DNA of 64,000 nt. It comes from a virus (lineage: Duplodnaviria; Caudoviricetes). The notes beneath the pieces are model-generated. The model was not told the origin of the DNA and made no database searches. It saw nothing but the letters and a program-made list of their open reading frames with translations. Shown one piece after another: positions 511 to 58,028 of the stretch (positions within the stretch are counted from its first letter, which is position 1; the number at the start of each line of letters is the position of its first letter). The stretch is from the IMG/VR virus record IMGVR_UViG_3300010340_001122. One strand, 5' to 3'. Made by a program: the position numbers and the translations under genes.

Positions 511-1899
511 TCAAATTTCTTCTGATCCTTGTATTTCTGATATTATATAATTAAAATTTTCTGGTAAATCATATTTATATTTGGCATTTAGTTTACTAGA
601 AAATTCACCACCAGAGAATCCAACTATTATTGACATGTTAACAATTTCTTTATCATCCAAAATTAATTTAATTTTAAATTTAAAATTATTATTTTCCTCT
701 TCTGAGTCTATTTTAAATTTAACATGATAGTCAAATAATATTTCTATATTATTATAATTTTTTCTAAAAAATTCTCTACTTGGAATCTGTATAAAGTTAT
801 TGCCACCGTTTGAAAGGTAATAAATAGGTCTTTCTAAACAATTCATTTTATTAACAAGAGTTTTCATCAATTTCATTTTAATAGTTCCTGATGATTTTTT
901 GAATCCATCTTCTTGTTTTTCTATTTCTTCTAACTTATCTCTTTTTAATGATGTTGTAAATAGATGCTCAAGTATTCTAGAATTAAGTATTGCCACTTTA
1001 GTTTCATACCATTCTTTATTTGATCTTTCCAAGTCAATAAAATGAATATCTCTTTTTTTCCAAATTTCACTCATCAATTCAGAAAGTTTAAGAATATTTT
1101 TTTCAAATTCTTTCATATATTCACCAAGATATTTAAACCTTGGATCTCTGTGTCTTATATCAAAATATTCAAAATAACCAATAGCATCAATTCTTTTAGT
1201 GTCTATGAATTTCTCAATATATGATTGTATATTTTTATTTGAATTCTCATATACAATTCTAACCCATTCTTGAGTTAATTTATCCCACTTTTTAATATTT
1301 TCTTCATTAAATAAATTATCAATATCATTTGGAATTAGATCATCAGCAAATGTATTAAAACTTGCTGTTTTTTGTAAAGATAGATTTTTATTTAGATAAA
1401 AAGAGAATTGTGTCCCATCTGTTAATTCAATAACAATATCTTCTTGTATATTCTCATCTTTATTAGGACCTATCCAATATATTTTTGAAATTCTATCAGA
1501 TGTTAATTTCTCATTTGGTAATAGTTTATCAATTATATTTCTGGCAGTTTGTCTAGCATTTACTAATTGTTCCCAATTTTTCTCAATATCAAATTCAACT
1601 TTATCAAAAATAGAATTTATTTTTGATAATTCATCATCAGATTCAAATTTTTTACCTAAATATTTACCTAATTCTAATCTATTTTTTGTTAATAATAGAT
1701 TTTTCAAATCTGTTAAAAATACAGAAGAGTTTTCAGAATATCTTGCTTTTAGTCCTCTATCTAATAAATTATCTAGAAATTCATTATTCAAAAGAATCAT
1801 AGATGTACATATTTCAAAAACTAAATTTTTTGGTGTATAATATGTTTTAACATTACTAACATTAGATTCAAATAAATAGGAGCTCTTTAAAAATTTCAT
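511..1899 (-). CDS. Hypothetical protein with capsid-targeting-like N-terminus
   Basis: 462-aa ORF starting MKFLKSSYLFES; TAATATATA upstream. Confidence 0.7.
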   Translation of the reverse strand: MKFLKSSYLFESNVSNVKTYYTPKNLVFEICTSMILLNNEFLDNLLDRGLKARYSENSSVFLTDLKNLLLTKNRLELGKYLGKKFESDDELSKINSIFDKVEFDIEKNWEQLVNARQTARNIIDKLLPNEKLTSDRISKIYWIGPNKDENIQEDIVIELTDGTQFSFYLNKNLSLQKTASFNTFADDLIPNDIDNLFNEENIKKWDKLTQEWVRIVYENSNKNIQSYIEKFIDTKRIDAIGYFEYFDIRHRDPRFKYLGEYMKEFEKNILKLSELMSEIWKKRDIHFIDLERSNKEWYETKVAILNSRILEHLFTTSLKRDKLEEIEKQEDGFKKSSGTIKMKLMKTLVNKMNCLERPIYYLSNGGNNFIQIPSREFFRKNYNNIEILFDYHVKFKIDSEEENNNFKFKIKLILDDKEIVNMSIIVGFSGGEFSSKLNAKYKYDLPENFNYIISEIQGSEEI

Positions 1900-1963
1900 A
1901 AAAGTTTTAATACTTTTTATTATATATTAATTTCTAATATGTATTTAACTTGTTTAAATATAT

Positions 1964-3910
1964 ATGTTTATGGCAGATAGTTTAAATACCGGAATACAAA
2001 AGTTAGGAGATACTTTATCAAGTAAATTATTTAATAAAAAAGATAATCCTGAAGGATCCACTAATTTTAGTGGACTATATTCTGGACCAGGCGGAGGAAT
2101 CACTAGAAAAGATCTCAAAGGTGTTGATGAAGATCTATTTATAGATAATGGCCTTACTAGGATTGCAGCATTTACACCAGTTGGTTATTTTGATCAAACC
2201 AATCAATGGATAGATGATAAATTAAGTTCTGTTATAAAAGAAATTCCAGGTGTTTCAAGAACACTAGTTAGTGGTACAATTTTATCTCCTGCCAGTCCAT
2301 CTATACAATTAGTTGATGAGGATACAGGTGATTTATCACCATCAGGATTTACCCCAGTTGCTTATTATAGAACTGGCAAAGAAGTATATTTAGGATTGGG
2401 ATCACAAGCGATGTCAGGATTTGTTCCGAGTAGTAAATCTATTGGAATCGTAAGTAGTGAGGAATCTAAAAATTATACGAAAAAGACTGGTGAATCAGGG
2501 TTTTATGAAAATAAAGAATCTTCTGATTATAGGTTTAAATTCGGATTAGAAGATGACAACTTATTAAATACTACTGATAATTTATCAGTAACTCCAAAAG
2601 ATAATGAAGATCCGTTGTTTCTAGGATTTGAGGTTATAATAGATGTCCCAAACTCACCATTATTTAATGGGGAAGCAGCAAAATTTATTGATATGTTTAA
2701 GGGTAATAGTGAGATAAAATCAAGAGCTAGGATTTTAATAGACACTATAAATGAATTATCAAAATTTTTTAAATTTAATACGAGTGTTTCATCCAAATTT
2801 AGTGAAGATGATATGAATAATTCTATTTTTAATACTTCTCAAAATACTAAAAGACATTATATTAAAAAAATATCCGGACTTGATAAATTGGTTGAAGCTA
2901 ATACCCCATCTGCTCAATCATCTTTTGTTAAATATAGACAAGATTTGATAAAATTATCATTTTATGAAGATACTACTCTAAATCTCGGAACGGTTGCTTC
3001 TTTATATAAATTACTATATTGGTCTAGAATAAATGGTAAGAATATAATACCAGAAAATTTACTCAGATTTGATTGTTATATAATTGCATCTGAAGTCAGA
3101 AATTTAACAAGGGTTGTTAAAGCAGCTAATGGAAAAGCTGGTCTACAAACATTAAAAGAAAATGTTTCTAGATATGTTTATAATCTATATGAGTGTCAAT
3201 TTTTTTTCGATAAAATGACACATGGTGATTCTATTGATATCGGTGGTGGATCTTTGGGTAATCCGGATCCATTAGAAGTAACATTTAGTTATAAATTCTC
3301 AACTATGAGATTTGATAGATTTAATTTCACTTCTAATCAATATTCTTTTTTAAATAATGCTAGAAAAAATCCAACTGAATTAACTCCAAGTGATGCAAAA
3401 TCCGCCACACTAACTGGTGATGAAATAGTTCTTCTTGGTAAAAAAGTTATAAATCCTTTAAATAATGGATATTCCGGAAAAGATATTACAGAAATTGATA
3501 GGTCATCTCTAATCGAAGAAAGATCACAATCTGATATTTCGGGATATGAGACTGTAGTGTTGGATGACTTAAAAGGTAAGGAAAAGTTTGATATTTATAA
3601 TAGCCAATATTCAAAACAAATAATGGAGGATCCATCTACCAACAATGGTAATTTATTTAAAAATGCGGGTGAAAAACTTTTAAAAAATATTAAAAAATCT
3701 GCTCTAAATGAATCACAAAGACAATTAAATAATCAATTTAGGTTAGTAAATAATAGTCTTGATAAAGTTAGAAATTCCTTTGGGATCGGTAGAATTAGTG
3801 ACCCAGTGAATGTTTATGACAGTTCACTCAATCAACCATTCTTCTCGGATCTTAAAAATTCATTAAGAAATTTTGGGGGAGATGTTTTAGGTGGATTATT
3901 GGGAGGTTAA
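1964..3910 (+). CDS. Probable virion structural (baseplate/tail-associated) protein
   Basis: 648 aa, G/S/N-rich, directly upstream of the gp5-like gene; function from context only. Confidence 0.45.
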   Translation: MFMADSLNTGIQKLGDTLSSKLFNKKDNPEGSTNFSGLYSGPGGGITRKDLKGVDEDLFIDNGLTRIAAFTPVGYFDQTNQWIDDKLSSVIKEIPGVSRTLVSGTILSPASPSIQLVDEDTGDLSPSGFTPVAYYRTGKEVYLGLGSQAMSGFVPSSKSIGIVSSEESKNYTKKTGESGFYENKESSDYRFKFGLEDDNLLNTTDNLSVTPKDNEDPLFLGFEVIIDVPNSPLFNGEAAKFIDMFKGNSEIKSRARILIDTINELSKFFKFNTSVSSKFSEDDMNNSIFNTSQNTKRHYIKKISGLDKLVEANTPSAQSSFVKYRQDLIKLSFYEDTTLNLGTVASLYKLLYWSRINGKNIIPENLLRFDCYIIASEVRNLTRVVKAANGKAGLQTLKENVSRYVYNLYECQFFFDKMTHGDSIDIGGGSLGNPDPLEVTFSYKFSTMRFDRFNFTSNQYSFLNNARKNPTELTPSDAKSATLTGDEIVLLGKKVINPLNNGYSGKDITEIDRSSLIEERSQSDISGYETVVLDDLKGKEKFDIYNSQYSKQIMEDPSTNNGNLFKNAGEKLLKNIKKSALNESQRQLNNQFRLVNNSLDKVRNSFGIGRISDPVNVYDSSLNQPFFSDLKNSLRNFGGDVLGGLLGG

Positions 3911-3931
3911 AATTTAACAATATATAGGATT

Positions 3932-5485
3932 ATGTATGTTGATAGAACAAGAACCTATATTGGGATAGTTGAAGAAAATGAAGACCCTAAAAAGCTTGGT
4001 AGATGTAGAATAAGGGTTATAGATATTTTTGATAATATACCAAAAGATGATATACCATGGGCATCTCCTTGGAAAGATTTAAATGGAAACTCATTTAATG
4101 TTCCTGAAAAGGGTAAGATAGTCACAGTGGTTTTTGATTCTGGTAATATTTATAAACCTGAATATGTTTATGCTGAACACTATAATATAAATTTAGAAAA
4201 TAAACTACAAAAACTTTCAGGAAAAGATTATACTTCAATGAAGTCGTTATTATTTGATCATAAAACTCAAATATTTGTTAATGATTCCGAAGGACTTGTG
4301 ATTGATCATAAAATGAATCAGATGAATATCACTAATAATAGTATTAATTTAAACCTAAAAGATAATAATTCAAGTATAAATTTAGGACATGAAAGTGCAA
4401 ATCAACAAGCTATATTAGGTACTAATTTTATGAATTGGTTTGACGATTTTATATCTAATTTATTAGGTGAGAAAGGAGGTCCATATCTTGGTAATTTATC
4501 AGCACCAGTTGTTGCTAATCCTGATTTTATTGAAATTTGTCAAAAATATAGAGCATTAAAAGATCCTAAATTTCTATCACATAATGTGAATTTGAACGAT
4601 AATAAATTAATAGATTGTAGTGTTGTTAAAATTCAACAAGATAGAATACAAGATGGTCAAATTGGAGATAAATGGAAAACAACAAAAACAGGTGTTTCTG
4701 ATTTTAGTGGTGGTAATGATTCAGAACCTATTGATTTCGGACCTAAGGCAGCAATTGCTCCAGAAGGAAATCTAACCGAGGCAAGTGGATCACAAGATCC
4801 TAATCAACCAGATACTGAACAAAGAGAGATACCACCCGCTTCTAGTGAAAGTAATGATGATGGTTTATATATACTACTTCAATTAAAAAGACTAAATTAT
4901 GAGATATATTCAAGACCTTATGAGATGAATATAGTTGGAATTAGATATCAAAATTCCGGAGATCCCTACTCAAATAAATTTATTGATAGACTCTATTTGA
5001 TATATAAAAATGACCAAGGATCATTAAAAGCTCATTGGTATCCAATATCAACAGTACCTGGTAAATACGGATCAAGTAAAAGTAAAACATTACACAAAGA
5101 TCTTCCAAAAATGAAAGAAAGAGGTGGATTAGGTATATTACAACCAGCTCAGTATAAAAATTCTTGGACTATTAGTGATTATCATGGTGAAAAGTGTTTG
5201 AGACCTGGTAAACAAAAATTTTATAGAGATACTAATACGGGTGTTGATAAAATAACTTATTCTAAATCAGGAGAAGGAAACGCTGGTATGTTAATTCATA
5301 AAGCTTTCAATAGAAATCAGGGCAAAAACACATATGGTGTTAATAATTGGTCTGAGGGATGTCAAGTTATTCAAAGTCCAACAGATTTAGATCAAATATT
5401 TGGATTATTAGAAAAGCACAAAATGAAATATGGTAATAGATTTACATATACTCTGATAACCAAAAATAATGTTCCTGAACTTTAA
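3932..5485 (+). CDS. T4 gp5-like baseplate hub/spike protein with C-terminal putative cell-wall enzyme domain
   Basis: N-terminal OB-fold signature GIVEENEDPKKLGRCRIRV...IPWASP...VPEKGKIVTVVF; C-terminal IH...WSEGCQV. Confidence 0.8.
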   Translation: MYVDRTRTYIGIVEENEDPKKLGRCRIRVIDIFDNIPKDDIPWASPWKDLNGNSFNVPEKGKIVTVVFDSGNIYKPEYVYAEHYNINLENKLQKLSGKDYTSMKSLLFDHKTQIFVNDSEGLVIDHKMNQMNITNNSINLNLKDNNSSINLGHESANQQAILGTNFMNWFDDFISNLLGEKGGPYLGNLSAPVVANPDFIEICQKYRALKDPKFLSHNVNLNDNKLIDCSVVKIQQDRIQDGQIGDKWKTTKTGVSDFSGGNDSEPIDFGPKAAIAPEGNLTEASGSQDPNQPDTEQREIPPASSESNDDGLYILLQLKRLNYEIYSRPYEMNIVGIRYQNSGDPYSNKFIDRLYLIYKNDQGSLKAHWYPISTVPGKYGSSKSKTLHKDLPKMKERGGLGILQPAQYKNSWTISDYHGEKCLRPGKQKFYRDTNTGVDKITYSKSGEGNAGMLIHKAFNRNQGKNTYGVNNWSEGCQVIQSPTDLDQIFGLLEKHKMKYGNRFTYTLITKNNVPEL

Positions 5486-7551: not shown

Positions 7552-7582
7552 AAAAAACCTCTGATTTATCAGAGGTTTTTTT
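7552..7582. terminator. Bidirectional intrinsic terminator
   Basis: aaaaaaacctctga-ttta-tcagaggttttttt between convergent genes. Confidence 0.85.
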
Positions 7583-7899
7583 TATTTTAAAAGTTTGATA
7601 TAAGATTTATAAGTTTTCCTATCCATAGTCATAATACAATATTTAGAATCTATTTCATTATAATAAGGGAAAAAGTAAAAACTATTATCTTGTTCATTAA
7701 AATTAAGTCCTAAAATCATTCTACCACCTTGTCTATATTTATCGCTATCTGATTTTAAAACAATAAAGTCATAATATATAATTTCTCTATGTAAAGACCA
7801 CCCATACTCTGATAATTTACACTCTAATATATGATCACCATCTTCATCTCTGAAGAGTAATCTATAGGATTTATTTTGTTTTAGAAGATTTTTCATCAT
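7582..7899 (-). CDS. Hypothetical protein
   Basis: 105-aa ORF; TATATTTG upstream. Confidence 0.65.
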   Translation of the reverse strand: MMKNLLKQNKSYRLLFRDEDGDHILECKLSEYGWSLHREIIYYDFIVLKSDSDKYRQGGRMILGLNFNEQDNSFYFFPYYNEIDSKYCIMTMDRKTYKSYIKLLK

Positions 7900-7935: not shown

Positions 7936-8604
7936 TTATTTTTTCTTTTTTTTCTTAGTAATAATACTATCAATCATACCATAATCTAAAGCGGATTTAG
8001 CAGTCATCCAATAATCTCTATCACCATCTTTATAAACTTTATCATACTTTTGTCCTGTTCTATCTGATATTATTTCATATAGCTCTTTTTTAAGTTCATT
8101 TATTTCACGTGCTTCAATTTCCATATCTGATGCTTGTTGAACCCATCCACCATAACCAAGTGGTTGATGTATCATTGTCCTGCTTCTTTTAAGAGCTTTC
8201 CTTTTCCCCCTTGTTCCTGAACATAATATTATAGCAGCCATTGATGCTGCTAATCCAGTATTTATTGTTTCAATATCCGGTTTAATATATTCCATCACAT
8301 CTAATAGACCTAAACCACTATAAACAGAACCACCAGGTGAATCGATATAAATCGATATATCATCATTTGATGTATTTTCAAGATATAATAACTGAGCTTT
8401 AATTAAATTACAAACTCCAGATTCCAACTCTGTGTTTAGAAAAATAATTCTATCATTTAACATTTTATTAAAAACATCAAACATTGATGTTGAAAATCCA
8501 TCATCAATAAATTGGCTAGTTTTATTAGATATTTTATTAAAATAGTCATCAAAATAAAGACTATTTATATTGTGGTGTTTAGTAGCATATTTTCTAAAAT
8601 CCAT
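7936..8604 (-). CDS. clpP: ATP-dependent Clp protease proteolytic subunit
   Basis: DRIIFL, YIDSPGGSV, GLAASMAA (Ser), MIHQP (His), DRDYWMTA (Asp). Confidence 0.95.
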   Translation of the reverse strand: MDFRKYATKHHNINSLYFDDYFNKISNKTSQFIDDGFSTSMFDVFNKMLNDRIIFLNTELESGVCNLIKAQLLYLENTSNDDISIYIDSPGGSVYSGLGLLDVMEYIKPDIETINTGLAASMAAIILCSGTRGKRKALKRSRTMIHQPLGYGGWVQQASDMEIEAREINELKKELYEIISDRTGQKYDKVYKDGDRDYWMTAKSALDYGMIDSIITKKKKKK

Positions 8605-8687: not shown

Positions 8688-9299
8688 ATGAAAAGGTTTA
8701 TACTAATTTTACTAACATTAATACCTTCTATTTTATTTTCACAGAAAATAAGTTTTCATCTTGCTCCAACTTATTTTTATGGAAATTCCGTTATAGTTGA
8801 TAAAAATACATCTTTTACAAATTTTAGAAATGAATCTAAATTATTTAATAGTTCATCCAGTTATGGTATAAGTGGAACTTTTTTTAAAAGAGATAGATTC
8901 TCATATTATCAATCTAGACAATATGGTGTAAAAGTTTCTATTTTAAAATCAACATCTTCTCAAAAAATAGTTTATGATCCCAGTCCTAGTAGTAACTTAA
9001 ATGACATTTATATGGTTAAAAATACATATTCTTTTATTGAGATTCCTGTTTTATTCACTCAAGCTGCTACAAATCATCAAACATTTGTTGTTGAAGTTGG
9101 TCCAGTTTATTCTTATTATTTAAATGAAAAATCATCTAAAATTGGATTAATGTTAAAAGCAGGTATACACAATCATATATCGAAGAAACTTACATATTCT
9201 TTTTTATTTAGCTCAACTGGTACTAGACTAGGAGATAATTACTATCGATTATCTAATGGGTTTGAACTTAATCTAATATATAGATTAAGTAGGAAATAA
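8688..9299 (+). CDS. Outer-membrane beta-barrel protein (Bacteroidota porin/PorT-like)
   Basis: Signal peptide ending FSQ; YSFIEIPVLF and EVGPVYSYYL motifs; terminal amphipathic strand FELNLIYRL. Confidence 0.65.
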   Translation: MKRFILILLTLIPSILFSQKISFHLAPTYFYGNSVIVDKNTSFTNFRNESKLFNSSSSYGISGTFFKRDRFSYYQSRQYGVKVSILKSTSSQKIVYDPSPSSNLNDIYMVKNTYSFIEIPVLFTQAATNHQTFVVEVGPVYSYYLNEKSSKIGLMLKAGIHNHISKKLTYSFLFSSTGTRLGDNYYRLSNGFELNLIYRLSRK

Positions 9300-9353: not shown

Positions 9354-9668
9354 ATGAAAACTACAATAGAAATAAACGGGTTTGAAATCGTTATTGAAGA
9401 AACTGATGGTCTTATTACTGTTAGTGCTATAAAAGACGAAGAAACTATCGAAGAATTTGAAGTACAATCTGGTGAGCAATCAGATGATGATGAGGTTCAG
9501 GGGTTTGATGATTTTGACGGAGAGGAATCTGATGATGGTAGCGAGTCTTTTGATGGAGAAGAGGAAGAAGATTTTGATGATGAAAGTGATGCGGATGATG
9601 ATATGGAAGAAGAGGAAGAAGAAGGTAAACTAGAATCTTTTCAATCTTTTCTTAAAAAAAGAAAATAA
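9354..9668 (+). CDS. Highly acidic small protein
   Basis: D/E-rich core, ends KLESFQSFLKKRK. Confidence 0.7.
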   Translation: MKTTIEINGFEIVIEETDGLITVSAIKDEETIEEFEVQSGEQSDDDEVQGFDDFDGEESDDGSESFDGEEEEDFDDESDADDDMEEEEEEGKLESFQSFLKKRK

Positions 9669-9671
9669 TAA

Positions 9672-10802
9672 ATGATTTTAAAATTTAACATTTTCAAAGA
9701 ATCTGTTAATGGGCTGGAATTACATTATTTCGCATTTGATTGGGATGATAATATTCTTCACATGTCAACAACTATATTAATGGATAAAAAAGAAGGAGAT
9801 AAATGGATACCTGTTGAGGTATCAACCTCTGAATTTGCAACACTTAGAAATGATATAGATAATTATAGATTGAGAAATAATGATCCAATCATAGGATTTT
9901 CCGGATTTAGAGATACCGGACCTAGAGGATCAAATGCCTTTATCGATGATGTTAAAGTTGCGGTATCTAAAAAAGATTTTGGACCATCTTGGGATAAATT
10001 CATAAACTGCTTAAAAGAAGGAGCTATATTTTCAATAATAACAGCTCGCGGACATGAGCCAGAAACTATAAAAAAAGCTATTGAATATATTATAGATGAT
10101 ATTTTGTCTGAGGATGAACAATATTTACTCTATAATAATTGTCTAAAACACGTCTATTTATTTGGAAAAGATTCTGATTTTGATAGAATTCCAAAAGGAC
10201 CTGTTTCAAAGACAAAATTAATTCAAGCTTACTTGGATCATTGTGATTTTTATGGTGTTAGTTCTCAAACATTCGCCAGTAAATTTGGTGAGGCATCAGC
10301 ATCTAATCCAGAAAAAGCCAAAGAAATGGCACTTGATAAATTTATAGAAAAATGTAATAATTTTGGTAAAAATATTGGAGCAAAGTCAGTATCTATTGGA
10401 TTTTCCGATGATGATCCAAAAAATGTTGATCATGTTAGAAAATATTTTAAAGAAAAATCAGCATTATCTAACGATCTTAGTCACGAATTAAAACTATCAT
10501 TACATAAAACAACTGATAGAAGAATAAAAGGTGGAGAAATAACTAAATTCAGACAAGGAGAAGAAAAATATGAAGCAACCGATTCTATTCAGGCTCCAGG
10601 AATGGCAAGCTCAGTAATGTCTTTTAGCTCTTTTAATAATCAAGGATCTAGATTGTTTCCAAGTAATGTATCCGATAATGATCCAGTTGCTCATACTCAT
10701 AGAATGGCAACAGATTATATTTCAAAGAAATCTAAAGAATGGACAGAAGATTTCAAAAAAAGCTTAAAAAGTAGGAAGAAAAAAACTAAAACAAAAAAAT
10801 GA
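9672..10802 (+). CDS. HAD-superfamily hydrolase-like protein
   Basis: FDWDDNI motif I, ITARGH motif II, GFSDDD motif IV; N-terminus MILKFNIFKES. Confidence 0.7.
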   Translation: MILKFNIFKESVNGLELHYFAFDWDDNILHMSTTILMDKKEGDKWIPVEVSTSEFATLRNDIDNYRLRNNDPIIGFSGFRDTGPRGSNAFIDDVKVAVSKKDFGPSWDKFINCLKEGAIFSIITARGHEPETIKKAIEYIIDDILSEDEQYLLYNNCLKHVYLFGKDSDFDRIPKGPVSKTKLIQAYLDHCDFYGVSSQTFASKFGEASASNPEKAKEMALDKFIEKCNNFGKNIGAKSVSIGFSDDDPKNVDHVRKYFKEKSALSNDLSHELKLSLHKTTDRRIKGGEITKFRQGEEKYEATDSIQAPGMASSVMSFSSFNNQGSRLFPSNVSDNDPVAHTHRMATDYISKKSKEWTEDFKKSLKSRKKKTKTKK

Positions 10803-11257
10803 AATATTTGAAAAGGTTTGAATCACACGAAGAATCTATGTCTAGAGAACAAATGTGTGATATTCTTTGTAATTGTGGTTATACAATTGAAGAACTTGAG
10901 AGCTGTTCTGATTATGAATTATCTGATATGTGTAAAACTTGCAATATGGATAGTGCTTTAGAAAATTTAAAAGAACAAAATAACTATATGTTCTTTGGTA
11001 ATTTGGAAACAATGAAAGATATGATTGATAAATTACTTCAAATGGATAAGTCTAAAATTGATTCAGTATTAAATGATCACGATTGGGCATCTGATCATAT
11101 ATCGGTTGCTAACGAGAATTTAGAACAAGTTTATAACTTTTTAAAAAATAATATCAATAATGAATTAATTGGAGGTCCAAAAGCCTCATATCCAAAAATA
11201 CAGGGACCGGAAGTTAAGAAAGTAAAACCTTATCAGATTAAAATAAAATCTGATTGA
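10799..11257 (+). CDS. Hypothetical protein with capsid-targeting-like N-terminus
   Basis: MKYLKRFES start; Cys cluster; overlaps upstream stop. Confidence 0.7.
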   Translation: MKYLKRFESHEESMSREQMCDILCNCGYTIEELESCSDYELSDMCKTCNMDSALENLKEQNNYMFFGNLETMKDMIDKLLQMDKSKIDSVLNDHDWASDHISVANENLEQVYNFLKNNINNELIGGPKASYPKIQGPEVKKVKPYQIKIKSD

Positions 11258-12077: not shown

Positions 12078-13937
12078 ATGTTAAAAAGTTTCCTTGAATA
12101 TATCTTTGAATCTGAATCAAAGTTAAGTCTACCAATATTTTATTCTAAAAGACTTAGAGATTTTTTCTATAAAATAGAAACATCTAGTAAAGATCCAGAT
12201 GTTGCTAGACTAGCAAGTGCTATTCGATTCTCCGAAAATTCAAATCAAATGTCATCTGATGTAACACTTATTGATATGACTGAAAAAAATGACATGTTAT
12301 CATTTATTCAAGTTAATAGAGTTAAAAGAAAATATGATGATCCTGGTAGTCATCCAAATCCTGAAAACTTTGACGATTTAAAATCTTGGGTTGAATATAT
12401 TTGGCAATATGATAATAAAAATTCACTATGGAATGATCGAAGAGGTGAAGTAAAGGTTGGTAAATTTTCTAAAAAGATTTTCAAGGATAATAATATATCA
12501 ACATCTGATGCAACAATCGAGAAATTCTCAAATGCTTATAAAGCCACTTTTGATTTTGATTTTAATCTTGACCAAAAGATGGATTTAGTATCGGGCGAAG
12601 ACATCAGAAAATGGTATTTAGTGACAAATTATTCAGAAGTAAAAGGACAATTGGGAAATTCTTGTATGAGACATGGTACAAGTCAGGACTTTTTGGATAT
12701 TTATGTTAAAAATCCAGAGGTTTGTAACCTATTAATAATGTATTCTGACCAATCTAAAACTAAAGTTTCAGGAAGAGCTCTTATTTGGAAAGATATCAAA
12801 GGTGAATTTATAATGGATAGAGTATATACAATAAATGACTATGATGTTGAAGTTTTTAGAAAATATGCATCATCAAAAGGATGGTCTGATATATCTAAAA
12901 ATTGGAAGAGAACTACGATTCAGTTAATAAGTGAAGTATATGATAAGTATCCATATATGGATAATTTTTATATTTTTGATCATGTCAATTTTAAACTAAC
13001 AAACGACGATATTTGGCCAAAAGAAGGACTTTATAAATTACAAAATACTGATGGAACATATACCGGTGATGATGATACTGTTTGGTCTGAGTATCATGGA
13101 GAACACATTAACAGAGAAGACGCCGTTTATTGTGAAAATGCTGACGATTATGTACATGTAGACTCCGCAATATATTTAGAATATTTAAGCATTTACGCTA
13201 GTCCAAATGAGGAAACTGCTTATTCTGAATGGTTTGATCAAACATATTATTTAGATGATGTCATACACTCGGAAATTATGGGTGATTATATTCCAACCAA
13301 TGATTCTATTTCAATTTTTATTAATTCTGTTGGAGATGAAGATTATATTGTAGCAGATTTTGCAAAAAAATCTTTAGTTACTCTTAATTTTGATGGTGAC
13401 GAAATAAAAACATTAAATAAATTTGTTATACTCGATCCAATAACTAGAGAATATCACTTCAGGGATGAAAAAGTAGATGGTATTAAAATACAAGATATTA
13501 TTCTTGATAAATTGAAAGATGTAGAAGTAGATACTGATAAGATAAAGAATTATTTAATAGAGAAAGAATTTACTATAGATAGAAGTAAATTAAATGATGC
13601 TATGTCAATTTATAAAGTTTGGCAGACACCAACAAACTTAGAAGGAGTTATTAAATATTTACTTTATGCTTATCCAAGTAGACCAAATCAAAGAGATGGT
13701 ATGCCTATTTTACCCCAAGAAAGAGGTCTTAAAAATTATGAAAAATATTCTATGTTTAAGTCCTCTATGTTAAAATTTGATCCTGAATTACTAGATATTT
13801 TTATTGATAAAAATAGTTTAGATAAATTAGGTAATGATATTATTTTTAATTTAACATGTCTTTCTCAATCTTTTGTAGAGGATGTATTTAAAGATACAGA
13901 GATATACAAGATGTGGTATAAGTGGAAGAATACTTAA
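12078..13937 (+). CDS. Hypothetical jumbo-phage protein (SCMR/GRALIW/DRVY/YPYMD motifs)
   Basis: 619-aa ORF starting MLKSFLEYIFES; truncated paralog at 25895. Confidence 0.7.
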   Translation: MLKSFLEYIFESESKLSLPIFYSKRLRDFFYKIETSSKDPDVARLASAIRFSENSNQMSSDVTLIDMTEKNDMLSFIQVNRVKRKYDDPGSHPNPENFDDLKSWVEYIWQYDNKNSLWNDRRGEVKVGKFSKKIFKDNNISTSDATIEKFSNAYKATFDFDFNLDQKMDLVSGEDIRKWYLVTNYSEVKGQLGNSCMRHGTSQDFLDIYVKNPEVCNLLIMYSDQSKTKVSGRALIWKDIKGEFIMDRVYTINDYDVEVFRKYASSKGWSDISKNWKRTTIQLISEVYDKYPYMDNFYIFDHVNFKLTNDDIWPKEGLYKLQNTDGTYTGDDDTVWSEYHGEHINREDAVYCENADDYVHVDSAIYLEYLSIYASPNEETAYSEWFDQTYYLDDVIHSEIMGDYIPTNDSISIFINSVGDEDYIVADFAKKSLVTLNFDGDEIKTLNKFVILDPITREYHFRDEKVDGIKIQDIILDKLKDVEVDTDKIKNYLIEKEFTIDRSKLNDAMSIYKVWQTPTNLEGVIKYLLYAYPSRPNQRDGMPILPQERGLKNYEKYSMFKSSMLKFDPELLDIFIDKNSLDKLGNDIIFNLTCLSQSFVEDVFKDTEIYKMWYKWKNT

Positions 13938-23469: not shown

Positions 23470-23470
23470 A

Positions 23471-25515: not shown

Positions 25516-25519
25516 AATA

Positions 25520-25527: not shown

Positions 25528-25535
25528 TAAAAACT

Positions 25536-45124: not shown

Positions 45125-45496
45125 CTTGGTCCAATTTAAATTTGGATAATTTTGAATTATTTTATCCCAAAATCCTCCACTAACATCTTGGTCTATAACT
45201 ATTTTAAAATTATTAGGTAGTGTTTCAAATATTTTAATTAACTCATCAATTAACCTTCTATCAGAAGTTTTATTTACTATTGATTTGATAGTTACACTAT
45301 TTTCATTGACTTCTAATAGTAATGCTTTTATTAGATTTTTCGAATCTATTCTAACTATTGGATTTCCAGATTTGTTAATTAGTGTTGATGCGTATATTTT
45401 ATTTGCTACTATTTTAACATATGGGAATATTTTTAATATCTGATTTTTCAATGATGATATTGTATCATATGAATTGTATTCTAGTATATTTTTCAT
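45119..45496 (-). CDS. Hypothetical protein, possibly GNAT-like
   Basis: Likely start MKNILEYNSY; DVSGGFWDK resembles a GNAT C-terminal motif. Confidence 0.5.
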   Translation of the reverse strand: MKNILEYNSYDTISSLKNQILKIFPYVKIVANKIYASTLINKSGNPIVRIDSKNLIKALLLEVNENSVTIKSIVNKTSDRRLIDELIKIFETLPNNFKIVIDQDVSGGFWDKIIQNYPNLNWTKL

Positions 45497-46171: not shown

Positions 46172-46759
46172 TTACAGTGGTAACTCTTCAGTTCCTTCTT
46201 CTTCATCATTTTCCTCATCTTCACCAACTTCTTCAAAATCATCTTGAGCTTGTACTTGAGGTTGAGCTTGTGTTTGAACTTGTACTTGAGGTTGAGCTTG
46301 TACAGATTGATCTCCTTGTTCAGTTTGAGCTTGTGGTGCCATTTGTCCTTGAGCTTGTGGTGCCATTTGTCCTTGAGCTTGTGGTGCCATTTGTCCTTGA
46401 GCTTGTGGTGCCATTTGTCCTTGAGCTTGTGGAGTCGTTTGTCCTTGAGCTGCTTGTCCTTCACCTTGAGCTTGTGCGTCACCCATAAGAGCACCAGCTG
46501 GGATTTGATCTACATTTAAGAAATTAGTATTGATGTATTTAACAATTTCTTCTGCGATATCTACATCTCCAAAAAATTGGCGTAAATTCTTACCTGTGGT
46601 ATCTTTTACTTTTTTAACATAGGCGTTAACTAGAGATTGTGGAATATCTAAAAAAGCTCTTACTTTATAAAGATCATTAACCTGAAGAACAGCTTCTTTA
46701 ATAATCTCTTCTCTTTTTCTGTTAAATGTGTATTTTTCAAATTTTCTAAGATGTTTCAT
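46172..46759 (-). CDS. Capsid-targeting-like protein with Q/A/G/P repeat and acidic tail
   Basis: MKHLRKFEKY start; (PQAQGQMA)n; TAATATATA at 46786-46794. Confidence 0.75.
   Translation of the reverse strand: MKHLRKFEKYTFNRKREEIIKEAVLQVNDLYKVRAFLDIPQSLVNAYVKKVKDTTGKNLRQFFGDVDIAEEIVKYINTNFLNVDQIPAGALMGDAQAQGEGQAAQGQTTPQAQGQMAPQAQGQMAPQAQGQMAPQAQGQMAPQAQTEQGDQSVQAQPQVQVQTQAQPQVQAQDDFEEVGEDEENDEEEGTEELPL
46325..46450. repeat. 24-bp tandem repeat, about 5 copies
   Basis: ttgagcttgtggtgccatttgtcc x4 plus one variant. Confidence 0.9.
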
Positions 46760-46804: not shown

Positions 46805-47305
46805 TCAACTTTTTATAATTAATATAGTTGTTATAGTCGCTAATATAATATTTCCACTAATACTAATAAATTTTCTAAATTTCTGTCTGGAAATTTCTTT
46901 TTTAAGAGTTTTGATTTCCTCATCTTTTATAGATGATTGTTTATCAGATAATTTTTTATCGGATTCATAATTTTTTATCTGATTATTAAGATTAATTATT
47001 AACTTATCTTTTTCACCACTTTGATTAATTAATTCTTTATTCTTTATTTCTAATAAAGATATTTTTTGATCTAAAGCATTTACTACTTCTAGATAATAAA
47101 CATCTAAATTATCACAATCAATTCTCAATTGTTTAAATAGTTTTAATAGTTCAGCGTCATTATCTAATGATTGTGCTTGTTCAATTGATATTACAATTCC
47201 TAAGGTATCACCATTTTCTATTAGATATCTTGGCAGTTCTAAAGATTGAGAATTTGCAAATATACTAATCATAATTAAAATTGAAGAAAGTATTAACTTT
47301 TTCAT
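46805..47305 (-). CDS. Secreted/membrane coiled-coil protein, possible spanin partner
   Basis: Signal peptide, coiled coil, C-terminal hydrophobic segment. Confidence 0.5.
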   Translation of the reverse strand: MKKLILSSILIMISIFANSQSLELPRYLIENGDTLGIVISIEQAQSLDNDAELLKLFKQLRIDCDNLDVYYLEVVNALDQKISLLEIKNKELINQSGEKDKLIINLNNQIKNYESDKKLSDKQSSIKDEEIKTLKKEISRQKFRKFISISGNIILATITTILIIKS

Positions 47306-48341: not shown

Positions 48342-48623
48342 ATGACAACTATAACAAAGAAAAAAACTTCATCTAAAGTAGATGAAATATTATCACAACC
48401 TTTTAAACTTATACTTCATAATGATGATTATAACACATTTGAATGGGTTATAACCTGTCTTATGAAGGTGTGTGATCATGAATTTGAGCAGGCGAGCCAG
48501 TGCGCTCATATAGTACATTTTAAAGGTGAGTGTGATGTTAAGTATGGAGATTTTGAAAAAATTTCAGTTATGAAAGATAAATTATCATCAGCTGGTTTGT
48601 CAGTCACTATAGAATCGAATTAA
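48342..48623 (+). CDS. clpS: ClpS N-degron adaptor
   Basis: LILHNDDYNTFEWVITCL...EQASQCAHIVHFKG. Confidence 0.9.
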   Translation: MTTITKKKTSSKVDEILSQPFKLILHNDDYNTFEWVITCLMKVCDHEFEQASQCAHIVHFKGECDVKYGDFEKISVMKDKLSSAGLSVTIESN

Positions 48624-49408: not shown

Positions 49409-51517
49409 TTAATTATTATTTTTAAACGGATTATTCCAAGGATTGGATAATACATCATTTTTGTATCTATTTTGAAGCTTCTTTCTCCTTATATCTAAAA
49501 CTTGAGTGTAATCTACACCTTCTGTATATTCTATTCCGTCTAATGTTGCTCTTATATAGTTCAACATTTCAGAATCAGGTAAAGATTCTGAAAATTCCTC
49601 AACCATTTGTCTAAAATCATTTTTTTGAAATATTGCACACATATCTATTATACTCATAACTGTATCATCATGTGATGATCCATCCGCAGCATATCTTACA
49701 TTACCTGCGGCTGTTGTATGTTTTATAAATGTTGTCATTTCCGAAATATTTATATCATTTGTTATTATTATAGATCTTTCTTCCATTTTATCTTGATACT
49801 CTTTAACCAATAGGTTTTTATTTTCACCAACTTTAAGTCCTATTTTTTCATCAAGTGCATCTGCGCGATGTTTGAATCTAAAAAATATTGATGATCCATA
49901 ATCATTTCTACCATCAAATACATGAGGCATATGAGCTAGTAGTTCATTTCCATAAGTATTGATCTCTAAAACTATTTTAACATTGTCTGGGTTGAAATAT
50001 TCAAATGATATTAAATATAGAATTTCAGCTAGTTGTTGTACAGATACTAAATTACTTCTAAACATACCTACCTGTTCCAATTTGAAAAAATCAACAATTG
50101 ATTTATATTTATGTTTTTGGTGTTCTATTAATTCTTTTGTTTTAACATTTAATTTAAATATATTAATTATTGAATAATCCTGTCCTAATCCTTCTGATAC
50201 ATCCACAGATATTATTATTTTATAATCTTTTCTTTTTAGTGGTAAAAATATATCATCGTCTTGAATCCATTTCATATCTTGATACGAAAATTTCAATTTT
50301 TCAAGTTCATCAAGTTTTTCCCACTCATATATTTTTTTATTTTTAGTTAAATCATCGATGAGAGTTTCGGTTAATAAACTTCTTGAAGAATTTATAAATC
50401 TTAAATCATATTCCTGGTTAAATGCTTCTTCACCGCCAATATCCTTAATAGTTTCTTTTTTCCAAGTCGTTATTTCTGAAAACTCTAATAGTCTTATTCC
50501 ATTAAATGATTCGGATAAAATATCTTCTTCAGAACAGTCTATTGTATTTAGTGTTGTAATTACCCATTTTTTTAACTCATCATTATATGATAAGGTGTGT
50601 TCATTTTTTGGATATTTTTCAATTAAATAATCGAGTAATTCATTTTTGTTTATTTTATTTTCTTCTACTTTTTTTGGATTTAGTCTAATATAAGTAGAGA
50701 ATCTTTTAGGAACTTGCCACCAATATACTCTTTTTGCGACATATGATGATTTTTCTCCCTCTGGTTTTTCAGCATCTGTTAATAATTTGTGAAAAAGGTT
50801 AAACCCATCAGGAGTTGATGTTATGATTATTTTTGAATTATCTATATTAGATACTGTCGGAAATACTGATTTGTAGAATTTATCAGCTATATTTCCTGGT
50901 AGATATGCAAACTCATCTAAGTATAAAAAATCAGCAGCCTGCCCAATAGATGCAGTTTTAGTTGTTGCGAATCCTTTTATTCTACTTTTATTTTCAAAAA
51001 CCATAAATTTTTGATTCCAGTTTATAATTCCCTGTTGTAAAAAGAAAGGCAGTTTTTGATATATTTCCCTTATTTTATCTAACACCTCAATTGCTGTATC
51101 TAATTTATTTGCTGTTACTAATACATTTTTATTATTATTAAATAAAACATAATGTAGCATCATAATTGATGAGCAGATGGTTTTACCTATTTGACGACTT
51201 GCCATCAATATATTAAATCTATTATTAAAGAAATTATCTAGTATTTCATTTTGATAGTCTCTAAGTGGTATTATAATTGGTTGTCCTTCTTCGCCTTTGA
51301 TATAACAATAGGTTCTTGCGAAATAATGAATATCTAAAGCACATTTTATATATTCTTCTTGTTCATCATTTGACATCTTAAATGTTAGACCAGCAGTTCT
51401 TAGACCCACTACTTTTTCAAAAAATGGATTTTCTAGTCTATTTAAAACAAAACCATTGTTTATTTTTTCAGTAGCTTCTTCTACCATTTTTGTTGTCCAA
51501 ATTATTTGTCTTGACAT
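49409..51517 (-). CDS. terL: Terminase large subunit (T4 gp17-like)
   Basis: LRDYQ, ASRQIGKT, LYLDEFAY, ITSTPDG, FNQEY, VDVSEGLGQDYS, HDDTVMS. Confidence 0.95.
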   Translation of the reverse strand: MSRQIIWTTKMVEEATEKINNGFVLNRLENPFFEKVVGLRTAGLTFKMSNDEQEEYIKCALDIHYFARTYCYIKGEEGQPIIIPLRDYQNEILDNFFNNRFNILMASRQIGKTICSSIMMLHYVLFNNNKNVLVTANKLDTAIEVLDKIREIYQKLPFFLQQGIINWNQKFMVFENKSRIKGFATTKTASIGQAADFLYLDEFAYLPGNIADKFYKSVFPTVSNIDNSKIIITSTPDGFNLFHKLLTDAEKPEGEKSSYVAKRVYWWQVPKRFSTYIRLNPKKVEENKINKNELLDYLIEKYPKNEHTLSYNDELKKWVITTLNTIDCSEEDILSESFNGIRLLEFSEITTWKKETIKDIGGEEAFNQEYDLRFINSSRSLLTETLIDDLTKNKKIYEWEKLDELEKLKFSYQDMKWIQDDDIFLPLKRKDYKIIISVDVSEGLGQDYSIINIFKLNVKTKELIEHQKHKYKSIVDFFKLEQVGMFRSNLVSVQQLAEILYLISFEYFNPDNVKIVLEINTYGNELLAHMPHVFDGRNDYGSSIFFRFKHRADALDEKIGLKVGENKNLLVKEYQDKMEERSIIITNDINISEMTTFIKHTTAAGNVRYAADGSSHDDTVMSIIDMCAIFQKNDFRQMVEEFSESLPDSEMLNYIRATLDGIEYTEGVDYTQVLDIRRKKLQNRYKNDVLSNPWNNPFKNNN

Positions 51518-51576: not shown

Positions 51577-52185
51577 ATGGGTACAATGTCAAAAAGTGAA
51601 AAAGAACACACTAGAATAAATGATGAATTTGATATGATTCAAGAAGAAAATATAGATTTTGATATAGCTGGGCATTTAGCTACTATTGATGATCTTCCTG
51701 ATTTGGGTCAAATTGAATTATATGATTATGATTCAGACTTAACTGTTGCATCTCAAAAAGGAATGGATGTAATTGAATCTCTTGTTGATCTATATTTGGG
51801 AGAATTTGGTGATTTAAAGAGTCATCCTTATATAAAAAATAAACTCAGAGAAGATGCTATGGTATATGCTGAAACTTTATTTTTATCTAAAATGACTAGA
51901 AAAAACTTTTTAACTCAGATGAGACAAGTTGATAATGGTGATAATTCTGCAAGAATGCATGAAGTTATAAATCAAACAATACGAGAAGTTAGAGAAAATT
52001 CTAAGTTCTCATCTTCACAGAGGACAGAATTAGAGGAATATTATAAAAAATTTAGAGAAGATTTAGGTGAAGTTGCCGCAGCTATGAAACTATCAAATCC
52101 TGATAAAGAAGAGGATGGTCAAATTGTTGATAATAAGAAGTTAAATGATATGATAAGTGAGGCAATGAAAAAGAAAAAATCTTAA
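51577..52185 (+). CDS. Hypothetical protein, possible small terminase subunit
   Basis: Divergent from terL; helical, ARMHEVINQ; ATG 51577 or 51586 preferred over the track's TTG. Confidence 0.4.
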   Translation: MGTMSKSEKEHTRINDEFDMIQEENIDFDIAGHLATIDDLPDLGQIELYDYDSDLTVASQKGMDVIESLVDLYLGEFGDLKSHPYIKNKLREDAMVYAETLFLSKMTRKNFLTQMRQVDNGDNSARMHEVINQTIREVRENSKFSSSQRTELEEYYKKFREDLGEVAAAMKLSNPDKEEDGQIVDNKKLNDMISEAMKKKKS

Positions 52186-53027
52186 AATTTAAAATTTTCA
52201 AAACTCTTAATTAAATTAGAATATTGTAATTGTATATTATATTCTTTAAATCTATTAGCTTTGTTATGTGTAAATTCTTTTATTATTAATAAATTTTCAT
52301 CATTTTTAATTTTATCCTTTACTATTGTTTTTACTTCTTTTTCAGTTTTAGTAAGTAGTTTTTCTAAAATACTGTTTATATCTTTACACATCTGTATTGA
52401 CTTCATATTATCATCATAAAAAGTTATTTGATTGTAGTTTTCAATTTCTACATTTGATAATTTATCACCATCAGTTTTTAAACCTAGTAAATGTTGTAGA
52501 ACTAATTTAGATTTTAAATAAGAGATTTCATCATCGTCTTTATTGTAGAAGGTCTCTGAGATGAAATAATATTTTTTAATTTTTAATCCTATTTCTTCTA
52601 GTTTTTCTTCTAGTTTAGAAATTTGCTTTTCAAAATTAGCTTTTGTGTTTTTAGAACATATTATATAAATATCATCATTTGTATTAATAACCGGTCTAAA
52701 TAGAGAGATGTCTATATCAAATTTTATATTTTCAATTATTTCAGGATTTAAAAATTCCTGCATCGATATTCCTAAATTTGAAATATCTACTTTAGATTTT
52801 TTAGCTTTAACTTTTAATTTATTCATAAATTCATTAGATATCCAAAATATTTTACCATTAAATGATATTTTATTTCCTTGAGATTTATAAATTCCAGATT
52901 TGAATAGGTTGAATTCAGATATGTCCATTTTAATTATTGGAATATTTGGATTTAATTTATCTACAATCCAGGGTTTTGATTCTATTTTTAAAATTATGTC
53001 TAGTTCAATAAAGTGAGCATTCATCAT
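52182..53027 (-). CDS. Degenerate HAD-like protein
   Basis: AHFIELD...IICSK...TFYDDN; ends NLIKSFENFKF. Confidence 0.5.
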   Translation of the reverse strand: MMNAHFIELDIILKIESKPWIVDKLNPNIPIIKMDISEFNLFKSGIYKSQGNKISFNGKIFWISNEFMNKLKVKAKKSKVDISNLGISMQEFLNPEIIENIKFDIDISLFRPVINTNDDIYIICSKNTKANFEKQISKLEEKLEEIGLKIKKYYFISETFYNKDDDEISYLKSKLVLQHLLGLKTDGDKLSNVEIENYNQITFYDDNMKSIQMCKDINSILEKLLTKTEKEVKTIVKDKIKNDENLLIIKEFTHNKANRFKEYNIQLQYSNLIKSFENFKF

Positions 53028-53951: not shown

Positions 53952-54329
53952 TTATTTATTCAAATTGTCAAGAAATTCTTTTTCTTTTTTAGAAAGTGAG
54001 TCAATTCCTTTTTCAGAAATTTTTTCTAGAATAACATCAACATCCAAAGACATTTTTGTATCTGTTTTGAATGATAATGATGACATATTTTTTAGAAAAT
54101 CTTTGAAATTATCTTGAAATATTATTTCTTTTTTTGAAGATTCATGCACATAAGCAACAGCCTCAAAAGTATTCTTATCGAAGAATATTTTTGTATATCC
54201 AGATTCTTTGTGTTCAAAGAGTTTATTGGCGTCTATATTTTCTATGCCGTTATCATCAAGAAGTCTTTGAAAGTCTTCAACCGATTTGAATCTATTCAAG
54301 TGAATTGATATTACGTTTTCGAATTTCAT
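53952..54329 (-). CDS. Protein with C-terminal DUF6576-like motif
   Basis: VDVILEKISEKGIDSLSKKEKEFL; TATATTTG at 54350-54357. Confidence 0.7.
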   Translation of the reverse strand: MKFENVISIHLNRFKSVEDFQRLLDDNGIENIDANKLFEHKESGYTKIFFDKNTFEAVAYVHESSKKEIIFQDNFKDFLKNMSSLSFKTDTKMSLDVDVILEKISEKGIDSLSKKEKEFLDNLNK

Positions 54330-56971: not shown

Positions 56972-57358
56972 ATGAATCATATTAAAACATTTGAAGGATT
57001 TTTCACAAATAAAAGTAAAAGGAGTATTTTAAGTAATTTGTTTAGTAAAGAAGATGATGAGTTTGCTCAAAAAATTTTAAATTCTTTAGAATCAAATAGA
57101 ATTGGTGATATATCCAGATATGGTGATTATAAAAGATCAGTTAAATTACAATCTAATGGAAATACATATCTAGTTACCGTTCAGAAAAGTTCAAAAAGTG
57201 ATTATGTCTTAATAATAAATAATAAACATTTTATAGATCGAAATACTGGTAAATCAACTGTTTCGAAGAAAATTATTAAAAATATTTGGGAATTTTTGGA
57301 TAAAGAACATGATAAAAAATCTTTTAATAAGGAAGATATGAAGAAAGATTTTGAATAA
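56972..57358 (+). CDS. Hypothetical protein with capsid-targeting-like N-terminus
   Basis: MNHIKTFEGFF start. Confidence 0.7.
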   Translation: MNHIKTFEGFFTNKSKRSILSNLFSKEDDEFAQKILNSLESNRIGDISRYGDYKRSVKLQSNGNTYLVTVQKSSKSDYVLIINNKHFIDRNTGKSTVSKKIIKNIWEFLDKEHDKKSFNKEDMKKDFE

Positions 57359-57360
57359 GT

Positions 57361-57383
57361 AAACCCGTTTTAACGGGTTTTTT
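57361..57383 (+). terminator. Intrinsic terminator
   Basis: aaacccgtt-tt-aacgggtttttt. Confidence 0.8.
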
Positions 57384-57407
57384 AATTATATAATTAATAT
57401 ATAGACT

Positions 57408-58028
57408 ATGAAATATTTGAAAAAGTATATTCTTTTTTTAGAGGATATTGAAAATATAGTAACAGATGATATTAGTGCATTACCATCAGATCCAGAATTA
57501 GACTCAAAGACTGATAAAACAAAATCTGAGTCTTTATCAGACTCACAAGCACTTTTAAGAGAATTTCAAGATAAAAAGAGTAAAATAGAGAGTATTTTTA
57601 AGGATCCAAAAATAACTGATGATGTTTCACTTGATAATGCCTTATTAAATGGTGTTTATAATAGTAAAAGGGAAGTTAAAGATAGAAATAAATGGATTAA
57701 AGAGTTTGAATCAATTCTTCGAGCAGAAAGAAGAAAGAATGCTCTTCAATCAGCTATAGGTAGTGATGAGGATCAAGTTAAAAAAACTAACGATGATATA
57801 AATCGATTAAATAATGAGATATTAAATGCTTCTGACAAAAGAAAAGATCAGATTGTTTCATCTCTAGAAATGAATAAAAAAAGACTTAAAGAAATTAAAG
57901 ATAATATTCTTTTGAATAAGAAACTACTTTCAGAAGATATAACTAATTGGAATAAAAATCTTGAGAATTTTAAAAAGTCTATTAAAATTGAGGAAGAAAG
58001 AATAAAGAATTTACTGTCTAAAGTATAG
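57408..58028 (+). CDS. Coiled-coil protein with capsid-targeting-like N-terminus
   Basis: MKYLKKYILFLE start; TAATATATA at 57395-57403. Confidence 0.7.
   Translation: MKYLKKYILFLEDIENIVTDDISALPSDPELDSKTDKTKSESLSDSQALLREFQDKKSKIESIFKDPKITDDVSLDNALLNGVYNSKREVKDRNKWIKEFESILRAERRKNALQSAIGSDEDQVKKTNDDINRLNNEILNASDKRKDQIVSSLEMNKKRLKEIKDNILLNKKLLSEDITNWNKNLENFKKSIKIEEERIKNLLSKV

Follow-up and report, generated by a model that had tools for sequence, protein, structure and literature searches.

Results

Tagged genes of the window

This report concerns a short peptide, here called the tag, with which many proteins begin in a 64,000-nucleotide stretch of viral DNA (Duplodnaviria; Caudoviricetes; IMG/VR record IMGVR_UViG_3300010340_001122), the whole of which we refer to as the window. 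The window has 26-30% GC and is densely coding on both strands, with 69 open reading frames (ORFs). An earlier note on this DNA had pointed to a shared N-terminus on many of its proteins, and all 17 N-termini quoted there were found at the corresponding gene starts; we count 15-17 of the 69 ORFs as tagged. The tag is 9-12 residues long and occurs in a short form, MK[Y/H][L/I]Kx[F/Y]E[S/N], and a long form, M[I/L/K]KK[Y/F]xx[F/Y][I/L]xE. Orthologues mentioned below are those of LR745206, the complete genome of an uncultured megaphage related to the window.

The tagged genes lie on both strands. At 511-1899 on the minus strand, a protein of 462 amino acids (aa) without a Pfam or PHROG match starts MKFLKSSYLFES, ending L-F-E|S, and its orthologue (64% identity) starts MKWLRNFELFKE. 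On the plus strand, 9672-10802 (376 aa) starts MILKFNIFKES, with MIKKFNQFLEN in the orthologue, and 10799-11257 (152 aa) starts with the short form MKYLKRFES, which has the top score, 21.9, in the position weight matrices described below. The 619-aa protein of 12078-13937 (plus strand), which starts MLKSFLEYIFES, is a member of the only sizeable tagged paralogue family (five members in LR745206). Two minus-strand genes come next: 16140-16544 (134 aa), which starts with the long, T4-like form MKLKKYNQYIKE and has the box TAATATATA 20 nt upstream, and 16570-17046 (158 aa, with a DUF6576 domain), whose MKHLMRYEGY is retained in the orthologue. The gene at 21585-22073 (plus strand, 162 aa) has two in-frame tags, MKYLKIFEN at Met1 and MKYLNNFKSFE at Met37, and the alignment with its LR745206 homologue begins at the second; the double tag could represent an alternative start or the fused remnant of a neighbouring tagged gene. 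A long-form tag, MLIKYNDFIIE, starts the 151-aa protein of 25895-26350 (plus strand), and its orthologue starts MLTKYESFLLE. Polyphosphate kinase 2 (PPK2; 27460-28611, minus strand, 383 aa; match at residues 146-369, E=1e-78) starts MLHYIKHIKEE, a weaker tag (score 10.4) with the T4 spacing Y4..I8..E10; between this tag and the PPK2 domain stands an extension of about 145 aa, and at the aligned position LR745206 has FHKFINEE.

Of all window tags, the nearest to MKTYQEFIAE of T4 is MIKSYLEFIKEN, which starts the 101-aa protein of 31920-32225 (plus strand) with TAATATATA 22 nt upstream. Further along are 35241-35945 (minus strand, 234 aa, starting MKIKKYLNFLES; orthologue MIKKFYQFINE) and 44024-45124 (plus strand, 366 aa, starting MKYIFNFISFNEE), the orthologue of which has no clear tag. 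The minus-strand gene at 45119-45496 (125 aa, MKNILEYNSY) is a weak candidate that the regular expression (regex) and the matrices both missed. Among the examples in the earlier note, the ones at 28611 and 45496 are the weaker matches. Also on the minus strand are 45493-46107 (204 aa, MRFIKTFENY), built as a tag, a variable linker and a conserved domain, and 46172-46759 (195 aa, MKHLRKFEKY; orthologue MKHIRTYENY), with TAATATATA upstream. Two plus-strand genes precede the tail sheath gene: 56972-57358 (128 aa, MNHIKTFEGF), two genes upstream of it, and then 57408-58028 (206 aa), which starts MKYLKKYILFLED and has TAATATATA 4 nt upstream.

Internal and C-terminal copies are present, as had been claimed. 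Apart from the double tag of 21585-22073, they are seen in 52182-53027 (minus strand), whose N-terminus is untagged and which ends NLIKSFENFKF (RHLKKTFESF in the orthologue), 9354-9668, with KLESFQSF at its C-terminus, and 29866-30591, with an internal VMTFENF. The 9354-9668 protein (plus strand, 104 aa) is extremely acidic, with long Asp/Glu runs, and ends KLESFQSFLKKRK; a tagged gene follows it directly, and LR745206 conserves the N-terminal half of the protein. No Pfam family was found for 14 of 16 tagged window proteins, the exceptions being PPK2 and DUF6576, and no PHROG family for any of the nine scanned; a protein atlas query with two of them returned viral hypothetical clusters only.

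The tag is enriched at N-termini and selected as a peptide

A regex derived from the window matched 15 of its 69 ORF N-termini as against 1.6-2.3% of internal 15-residue segments, and the identical regex matched 112 of the 892 N-termini of the independent relative LR745206 as against 0.9-1.2% of internal segments. When position weight matrices were trained on LR745206 only and then applied to the window, 15 of its 69 N-termini scored above the 99th percentile of internal segments, where 0.7 would be expected (binomial p=3e-16). In the comparison with shuffled controls that the earlier note had asked for, 14 of 69 N-termini exceeded the 99th percentile of scores from shuffled versions of those N-termini in which composition was preserved. 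Since the matrix scores beat both internal segments and shuffles, the enrichment is not due to AT-rich composition, and chance is excluded as the source of the shared N-terminus. In the whole of LR745206, about 120-133 of the 892 ORFs are tagged, and variants of the same core occur in distant relatives (MKYIKEYEEF[I/L]NE in LR756500, MIKKFxxFINE in LR756501). The carriers are unrelated, as had been claimed: without their first 20 residues, the 15 window proteins fell into 15 BLAST clusters, and the 133 tagged proteins of LR745206 into 123.

Synonymous codon choice in the tags equals that of the genome for K, E, F and N and differs modestly for L, I and Y; the ratio AAA/AAG for Lys is 0.75/0.25 in tags and 0.74/0.26 genome-wide, and GAA/GAG for Glu is 0.74/0.26 and 0.72/0.28, respectively. 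This agreement argues against a DNA or mRNA element and, as judged from these codons, purifying selection on the tag acts on the peptide and not on the DNA. Twelve of the 13 tagged window genes having an LR745206 homologue retain the tag there. For the 45493-46107 protein we found 822 homologues, and in the 113 aligned for entropy the tag had 0.87 bit, the next five residues 2.22 and the body 0.61; K5, F7 and E8 were near-invariant and the five residues behind the tag hypervariable. Its AlphaFold2 model (mean pLDDT 82) has residues 1-11 below 50 and a fold that starts at residue 13, and Foldseek gave weak nicotinamidase/isochorismatase matches (E ~1e-2, probability 0.97). The architecture is modular, with tag, variable linker and domain in that order, and the modelled fold does not include the tag. 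Tagged proteins are more acidic than the others (median pI 4.86 versus 5.54, p=3e-8), with Asp/Glu 1.6-fold enriched in residues 12-30, after the tag, and their genes are clustered along the genome (42 adjacent pairs versus 19.7 expected).

Two other kinds of N-terminus were considered and rejected. The tags are amphipathic and lead into acidic linkers without a hydrophobic core of at least 10 residues, which does not fit a Sec or lipoprotein signal peptide; the true signal peptides of the window (8688-9299, 46805-47305) look unlike tags. Neither do they represent the basic/aromatic N-terminal extension of the ribosomal protein S21 of huge phages (PMC7162821), as the S21 genes of this clade are frames of 64-67 aa with no extension.

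Tagged genes share an upstream box with virion genes

The observation that many tagged genes stand behind a common box held up. Within 60 nt upstream, TAATATATA was present at 7 of 15 tagged and 10 of 54 untagged window genes (p=0.04), and in LR745206 at 38% of tagged versus 12% of untagged genes (p=4e-11), a 3-fold enrichment; 83 of the 133 tagged LR745206 genes have no such box within this distance. The box or a one-base variant of it also stands upstream of the LR745206 portal, protease, capsid, sheath and baseplate genes and of the sheath gene of the window. LR745206 contains 191 TAATATATA sites, 144 of them just upstream of an ORF in the correct orientation. Among its 156 boxes within 150 nt upstream of an ORF, 74 end 0-9 nt and 50 end 20-29 nt from the ATG; the former would give leaderless or nearly leaderless mRNAs, and tagging is most frequent (44%) among genes whose box stands 0-12 nt from the ATG. 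A second box, (T/C)GTATATTTG, which fits the TAnnTTTG -7 element of Bacteroidota, was found upstream of the untagged genes 7582-7899, 13938-14297, 31250-31855, 53952-54329 and 24589-25515. Such host-type TAnnTTTG boxes precede nine untagged and no tagged window genes, a difference that is not significant; as only untagged genes have the second box, it may mark host-polymerase (early) promoters.

The long form resembles the T4 capsid-targeting sequence

The T4 internal proteins IPII and IPIII carry the capsid-targeting sequence (CTS) MKTYQEFIAE, and related propeptides are found on IPI, Alt and gp24 (Mullaney and Black 1996, as reviewed in PMC9026906, PMC9958956 and PMC5694885). Mutation has shown that residues 4 and 7 of the CTS serve targeting and residues 8 and 10 processing at L/I-x-E (PMC9026906). 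Long-form tags conserve the positions that match T4 Tyr4, Phe7, Ile8 and Glu10. At positions 4 and 7, the long form has [Y/F]-x-x-[F/Y], and the short form has L/I at 4 and F/Y at 7. On the long-form tag matrix, the T4 core YQEFIAEA scored 12.0 bits, in the top 0.004% of 170,012 internal segments. A hydrophobic residue (I, L or F) is found at -3 from the Glu in 12 of 17 window tags.

The head protease of relatives carries tag-like repeats

A T4-type head module was present in every relative examined, namely LR745206, LR756500, LR756501 and 35 IMG/VR contigs. In LR745206, it groups the portal (phrog_213), a head maturation protease and a Gp23-family capsid protein (E=7e-26). The protease matches phrog_207 (E=3e-30) and Pfam Peptidase_S77 (E=1e-4); a phmmer search of its domain against the PDB did not find T4 gp21, and it was the PHROG and Pfam profiles that gave the protease family. 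Beyond its protease part, the protein continues into 12 tandem 14-residue units of NIAYSEYIAENLDK and then an acidic stretch. The YSEYIAE/YSEYLAE repeat occurs in 11-13 copies in all 35 IMG/VR relatives, and also in LR756501 and, in degenerate form, in LR756500; tags and scaffold repeats have the same core pattern in all three genomes compared. The units scored 6.3-8.0 bits on the long-form tag matrix, in the top 0.06-0.12% of internal segments, and 10 of the top 200 segments fell in this one protease-scaffold protein. L-I-[I/V]-E at the N-terminus of the protease resembles LIE-9 of T4 gp21, and in three genomes a conserved [I/L/M]-x-E|N closes the N-terminal region of the capsid protein. Complex prediction for the repeat region and the tagged 204-aa protein gave no answer (score 0.00, run without controls) and speaks neither for nor against docking. 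Inside the same LR745206 module, just after the capsid gene, a peptidase gene (202934-204292; phrog_4191, E=7e-65) is flanked by two small tagged ORFs.

Untagged genes and relatives of the window

The tail, terminase and replication genes are untagged, in line with what had been noted for replication genes, and so are ClpP and an HNH endonuclease. The untagged landmarks include the tail sheath (58095-62303, plus strand, 1402 aa), which has a TAATATATA-type box upstream and whose matches place the window with the megaphage clade, a T4-type large terminase (49409-51517, minus strand; Terminase_6N, E=2e-17) and a gp5-like baseplate hub (3932-5485). Further untagged genes encode a UvsW-like helicase, a family-B DNA polymerase (PolB) fragment, a RecA/UvsX-like protein, ClpS, an M15 lysin and NAD-salvage enzymes. 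ClpP is full-length (7936-8604, minus strand; E=1.5e-64; LR745206 copy 69% identical), and ClpS is an N-degron adaptor (48342-48623, plus strand; E=2.5e-17; LR745206 copy 76% identical). The PolB match is limited to a 403-aa ORF (474 aa for the LR745206 counterpart), near which lie the HNH endonuclease and two DUF7487 proteins (loci 17705-18916 (-), 15554-16027 (-), 19207-20388 (+) and 62403-63998 (+)); the polymerase may have been split by mobile elements. Metabolic genes are grouped at 22783-28611, comprising an NAPRTase-family fragment, a class I/II aminotransferase, a NUDIX protein, a weak match to the PRPP-synthetase N-domain and PPK2, and together with the nicotinamidase-like 45493-46107 may form an NAD/nucleotide salvage set.

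By the similarity of its tail sheath, the window, with 27% GC, is a fragment of an uncultured megaphage. The best sheath matches are in the uncultured megaphages LR745206 (635 kb, 52% identity), LR756502 and LR756504, followed by LR756501 (735 kb) and then by Lak phages and Tenacibaculum phage PTm1; for the Lak phages and PTm1 the alignment spans only about half of the 1402-aa protein. At 735 kb, LR756501 corresponds to the largest genome of the Mahaphage clade, in which the largest members are predicted to infect Bacteroidetes (PMC7162821). For the window phage, a host among Bacteroidota-type bacteria is predicted. Near-identical DNA was found in activated sludge, an anaerobic digester, freshwater, wastewater and one marine study, and at least half of the sampled window words were present in eight runs from five studies, with 95-96% of them in three runs from activated sludge or a digester. 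Exact 40-mer scans of viral and metagenome contigs gave no match, and a protein-based metagenome scan returned only relatives, at most 84% identical.

Discussion

A putative head-targeting propeptide

Our leading hypothesis, to which we give a probability of roughly 0.55, sees in the shared N-terminus a portable propeptide of the T4 CTS type that targets proteins to the head and is in use across the proteome. It is the best explanation because several lines of evidence combine: the N-terminal enrichment, the selection on the peptide, the box shared with virion genes, the likeness to T4 and the protease repeats. We envisage that tagged proteins would be made from the same promoter class as virion genes, and that the amphipathic tag, aromatic-x-x-aromatic-[I/L]-x-E or the short MKYLKxFE, would dock on the prohead core. 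The likeliest docking site would be the 11-13 tandem YSEY[I/L]AE units, carried on a C-terminal scaffold-like extension of the T4-type head maturation protease, and a tag would equal one unit of the scaffold repeat. After assembly of the shell, the protease would cut after Glu in scaffold repeats and tags alike; these cuts would dismantle the core and free the cargo inside the head, from where it would be delivered with the DNA to the next host. How proteins localise to the T4 core is still called mysterious (PMC9958956), and the repeats described here suggest that a protease-scaffold protein is the docking site for a CTS. More tentative is the full extension of this hypothesis, in which more than 100 tagged proteins, 15-20% of the proteome, would be pre-loaded in heads, docked on a 12-site protease-scaffold array, cut loose and injected as a starter proteome; we regard it as possible, at clearly less than even odds. 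The tagged enzymes of anti-defence or repair type include proteins with Acb1-like, NADAR, RNA ligase and NUDIX domains in LR745206, and PPK2 and the nicotinamidase-like enzyme in the window.

If the hypothesis is true, the tag gives a readout, obtainable from sequence, of the protein arsenal injected by uncultured giant phages, which is very hard to obtain without cultures. Since most tagged proteins are dark-matter proteins, more than 100 of them per genome would thereby gain a place and a time of action. The CTS principle of T4, which there serves a handful of cargo proteins, would then extend to a considerable part of a proteome, and a tag of 10 residues able to bring arbitrary proteins into very large capsids would be of interest for protein delivery.

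Several observations weigh against a capsid-targeting role. The presence of tagged proteins in virions and their processing are predictions from sequence. The head protease, scaffold and capsid genes lie outside the window, and that part of the argument rests on relatives with at most 52% sheath identity. The scaffold repeats did not rank high when first scanned blind using a matrix that mixed short and long tags, and only the long-form matrix placed them there; moreover, as all units copy a single sequence, we estimate the effective significance of their likeness at about 0.01. Five of the 17 window tags end R-F-E, R-Y-E, T-F-E (twice) or K-F-E and thus fall outside the strict L/I-x-E motif of T4, as they have no hydrophobic residue at -3 from the Glu; TFE-275, however, is a documented cleavage site of a gp21-like protease in phage 201phi2-1 (PMC5694885). 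The conserved C-terminal peptide of 52182-53027 occupies a place where the classical CTS of T4 internal proteins is not found, even though C-terminal propeptides do occur on T4 Alt and gp21 (PMC9026906). The genes most often tagged have their box 0-12 nt from the ATG, whereas for the six virion genes checked by eye this distance is about 20-45 nt. The tagged proteins of LR745206 include ones with domains of housekeeping type (thioredoxin, GrpE, SpoVR, lysins) that have no obvious use in a capsid, and some of these matches are regex false positives. Finally, no tags were seen in a 50-kb stretch of Tenacibaculum phage PTm1 or a 43-kb stretch of Flavobacterium phage MaF61, both cultured relatives, and the biology of these phages is therefore unusable as a test of tag function. 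The T4-like capsid-targeting reading proposed in the earlier note is partly supported: in its favour are the CTS likeness, the T4-type head genes of the relatives and the box shared with virion genes, and on the other side stand the tags that end in x-F-E and the copies at C-termini.

Other roles for the tag

Being modular, placed outside the fold and conserved as a peptide, the tag could instead be a short linear motif that docks on some other late partner, such as an assembly chaperone, a cytoplasmic compartment or a membrane-associated factory, with its T4 likeness being that of any amphipathic helix. A C-terminal copy is what a free docking peptide would allow, the cargo spans many enzyme types, and binding of the tag to the head core is itself an inferred step. 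However, a generic helix would not need the match to T4 residues 4, 7, 8 and 10 or the terminal Glu followed by Ser/Asn, and repeats of the motif occur elsewhere only in the head protease-scaffold protein; genes for a chimallin-like protein or a compartment did not turn up, in an analysis that made no search aimed at them. We therefore consider docking on a different partner unlikely, if the most serious of the alternatives.

A signal for regulated proteolysis or stability, read by phage Clp components and timing the lifetimes of proteins, comes to mind because the window encodes both a full-length ClpP and ClpS and because the N-terminal motifs recognised by ClpXP are short, basic and hydrophobic. 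Yet ClpS reads an N-terminal Leu, Phe, Tyr or Trp under the N-end rule, and Met is expected to be retained before Lys or Ile; the tags, which start Met-Lys, Met-Arg, Met-Ile, Met-Leu or Met-Asn, are not N-degrons, and this disfavours a Clp-related signal. A degron would also leave unexplained the conserved Glu, the likeness to the scaffold repeats and the promoter link to virion genes, and neither Clp gene lies near a head module, so that we hold this role to be very improbable. Least probable of all, in our judgement, is that the conservation reflects nucleic acid or translation initiation, either as a 5' element of near-leaderless mRNAs behind TAATATATA or as a promoter-plus-start recombination cassette. 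The 74 of 156 LR745206 boxes that end 0-9 nt from the ATG, the 44% tagging of genes with the nearest boxes and the clustering of tagged genes would all suit it, but codon choice in the tags equals that of the genome for K, E, F and N with a modest shift for L, I and Y, tag variation is conservative at the amino-acid level (F/Y, I/L, K/R), the 83 tagged genes without a box within 60 nt carry the tag all the same, and tags survive in orthologues diverged to 45-65% protein identity.

Comparison with known systems

The T4 CTS is likewise a peptide of about 10 residues that starts proteins with nothing else in common, with Met-basic, an aromatic at about position 4-5, another aromatic three residues on and then I/L-x-Glu. 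It belongs to a lineage whose capsid protein is of the gp23 type and whose protease is of the gp21 type; such head genes are seen in the relatives of the window. It differs in scale, with a handful of T4 proteins as against 15-17 of 69 window genes and about 120-133 of 892 in LR745206. The megaphages also have a short form, MKYLKxFE[SN], that lacks I/L-x-E, copies at C-termini, and a motif repeated 11-13 times on the protease itself; to our knowledge, CTS-like repeats on the protease have not been described for T4. Reviewers have suggested that T4-like phages load varied proteins by means of the CTS (PMC9026906), and our literature search found no description of proteome-scale CTS use in megaphages, nor of CTS-like repeats on a protease.

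The inner-body and ejection proteins of phiKZ, 201phi2-1 and SPN3US offer a second comparison, as these giant phages load tens of proteins into the head and trim them after Glu by a T4-like prohead protease, and have conserved N-termini on diverged paralogues (PMC5694885, PMC9026906). Their propeptides, however, are mostly at least 100 residues long with S/A/G-x-E sites, whereas the megaphage tag has 9-12 residues, is T4-like and sits on non-homologous proteins. A long propeptide of the phiKZ type was rejected for the tag on its length of 9-12 aa, on the fold that starts at residue 13 in the model and on its aromatic or I/L-x-E motif. There are giant phages whose heads are reported to contain some 50 different proteins (PMC7411985), and by this analogy the scale of the megaphage tag is not out of line with giant-phage head content.

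The third comparison is with the cargo-loading peptides of encapsulins and the scaffolding helices of the P22 type. In these systems a short terminal peptide docks cargo inside an HK97-fold shell or on its scaffold; the peptides are transplantable and work at either terminus, those of encapsulins bind the shell protein itself, and no maturation protease removes them. With no relation to the tag in sequence, they follow the same working principle that we propose for it.

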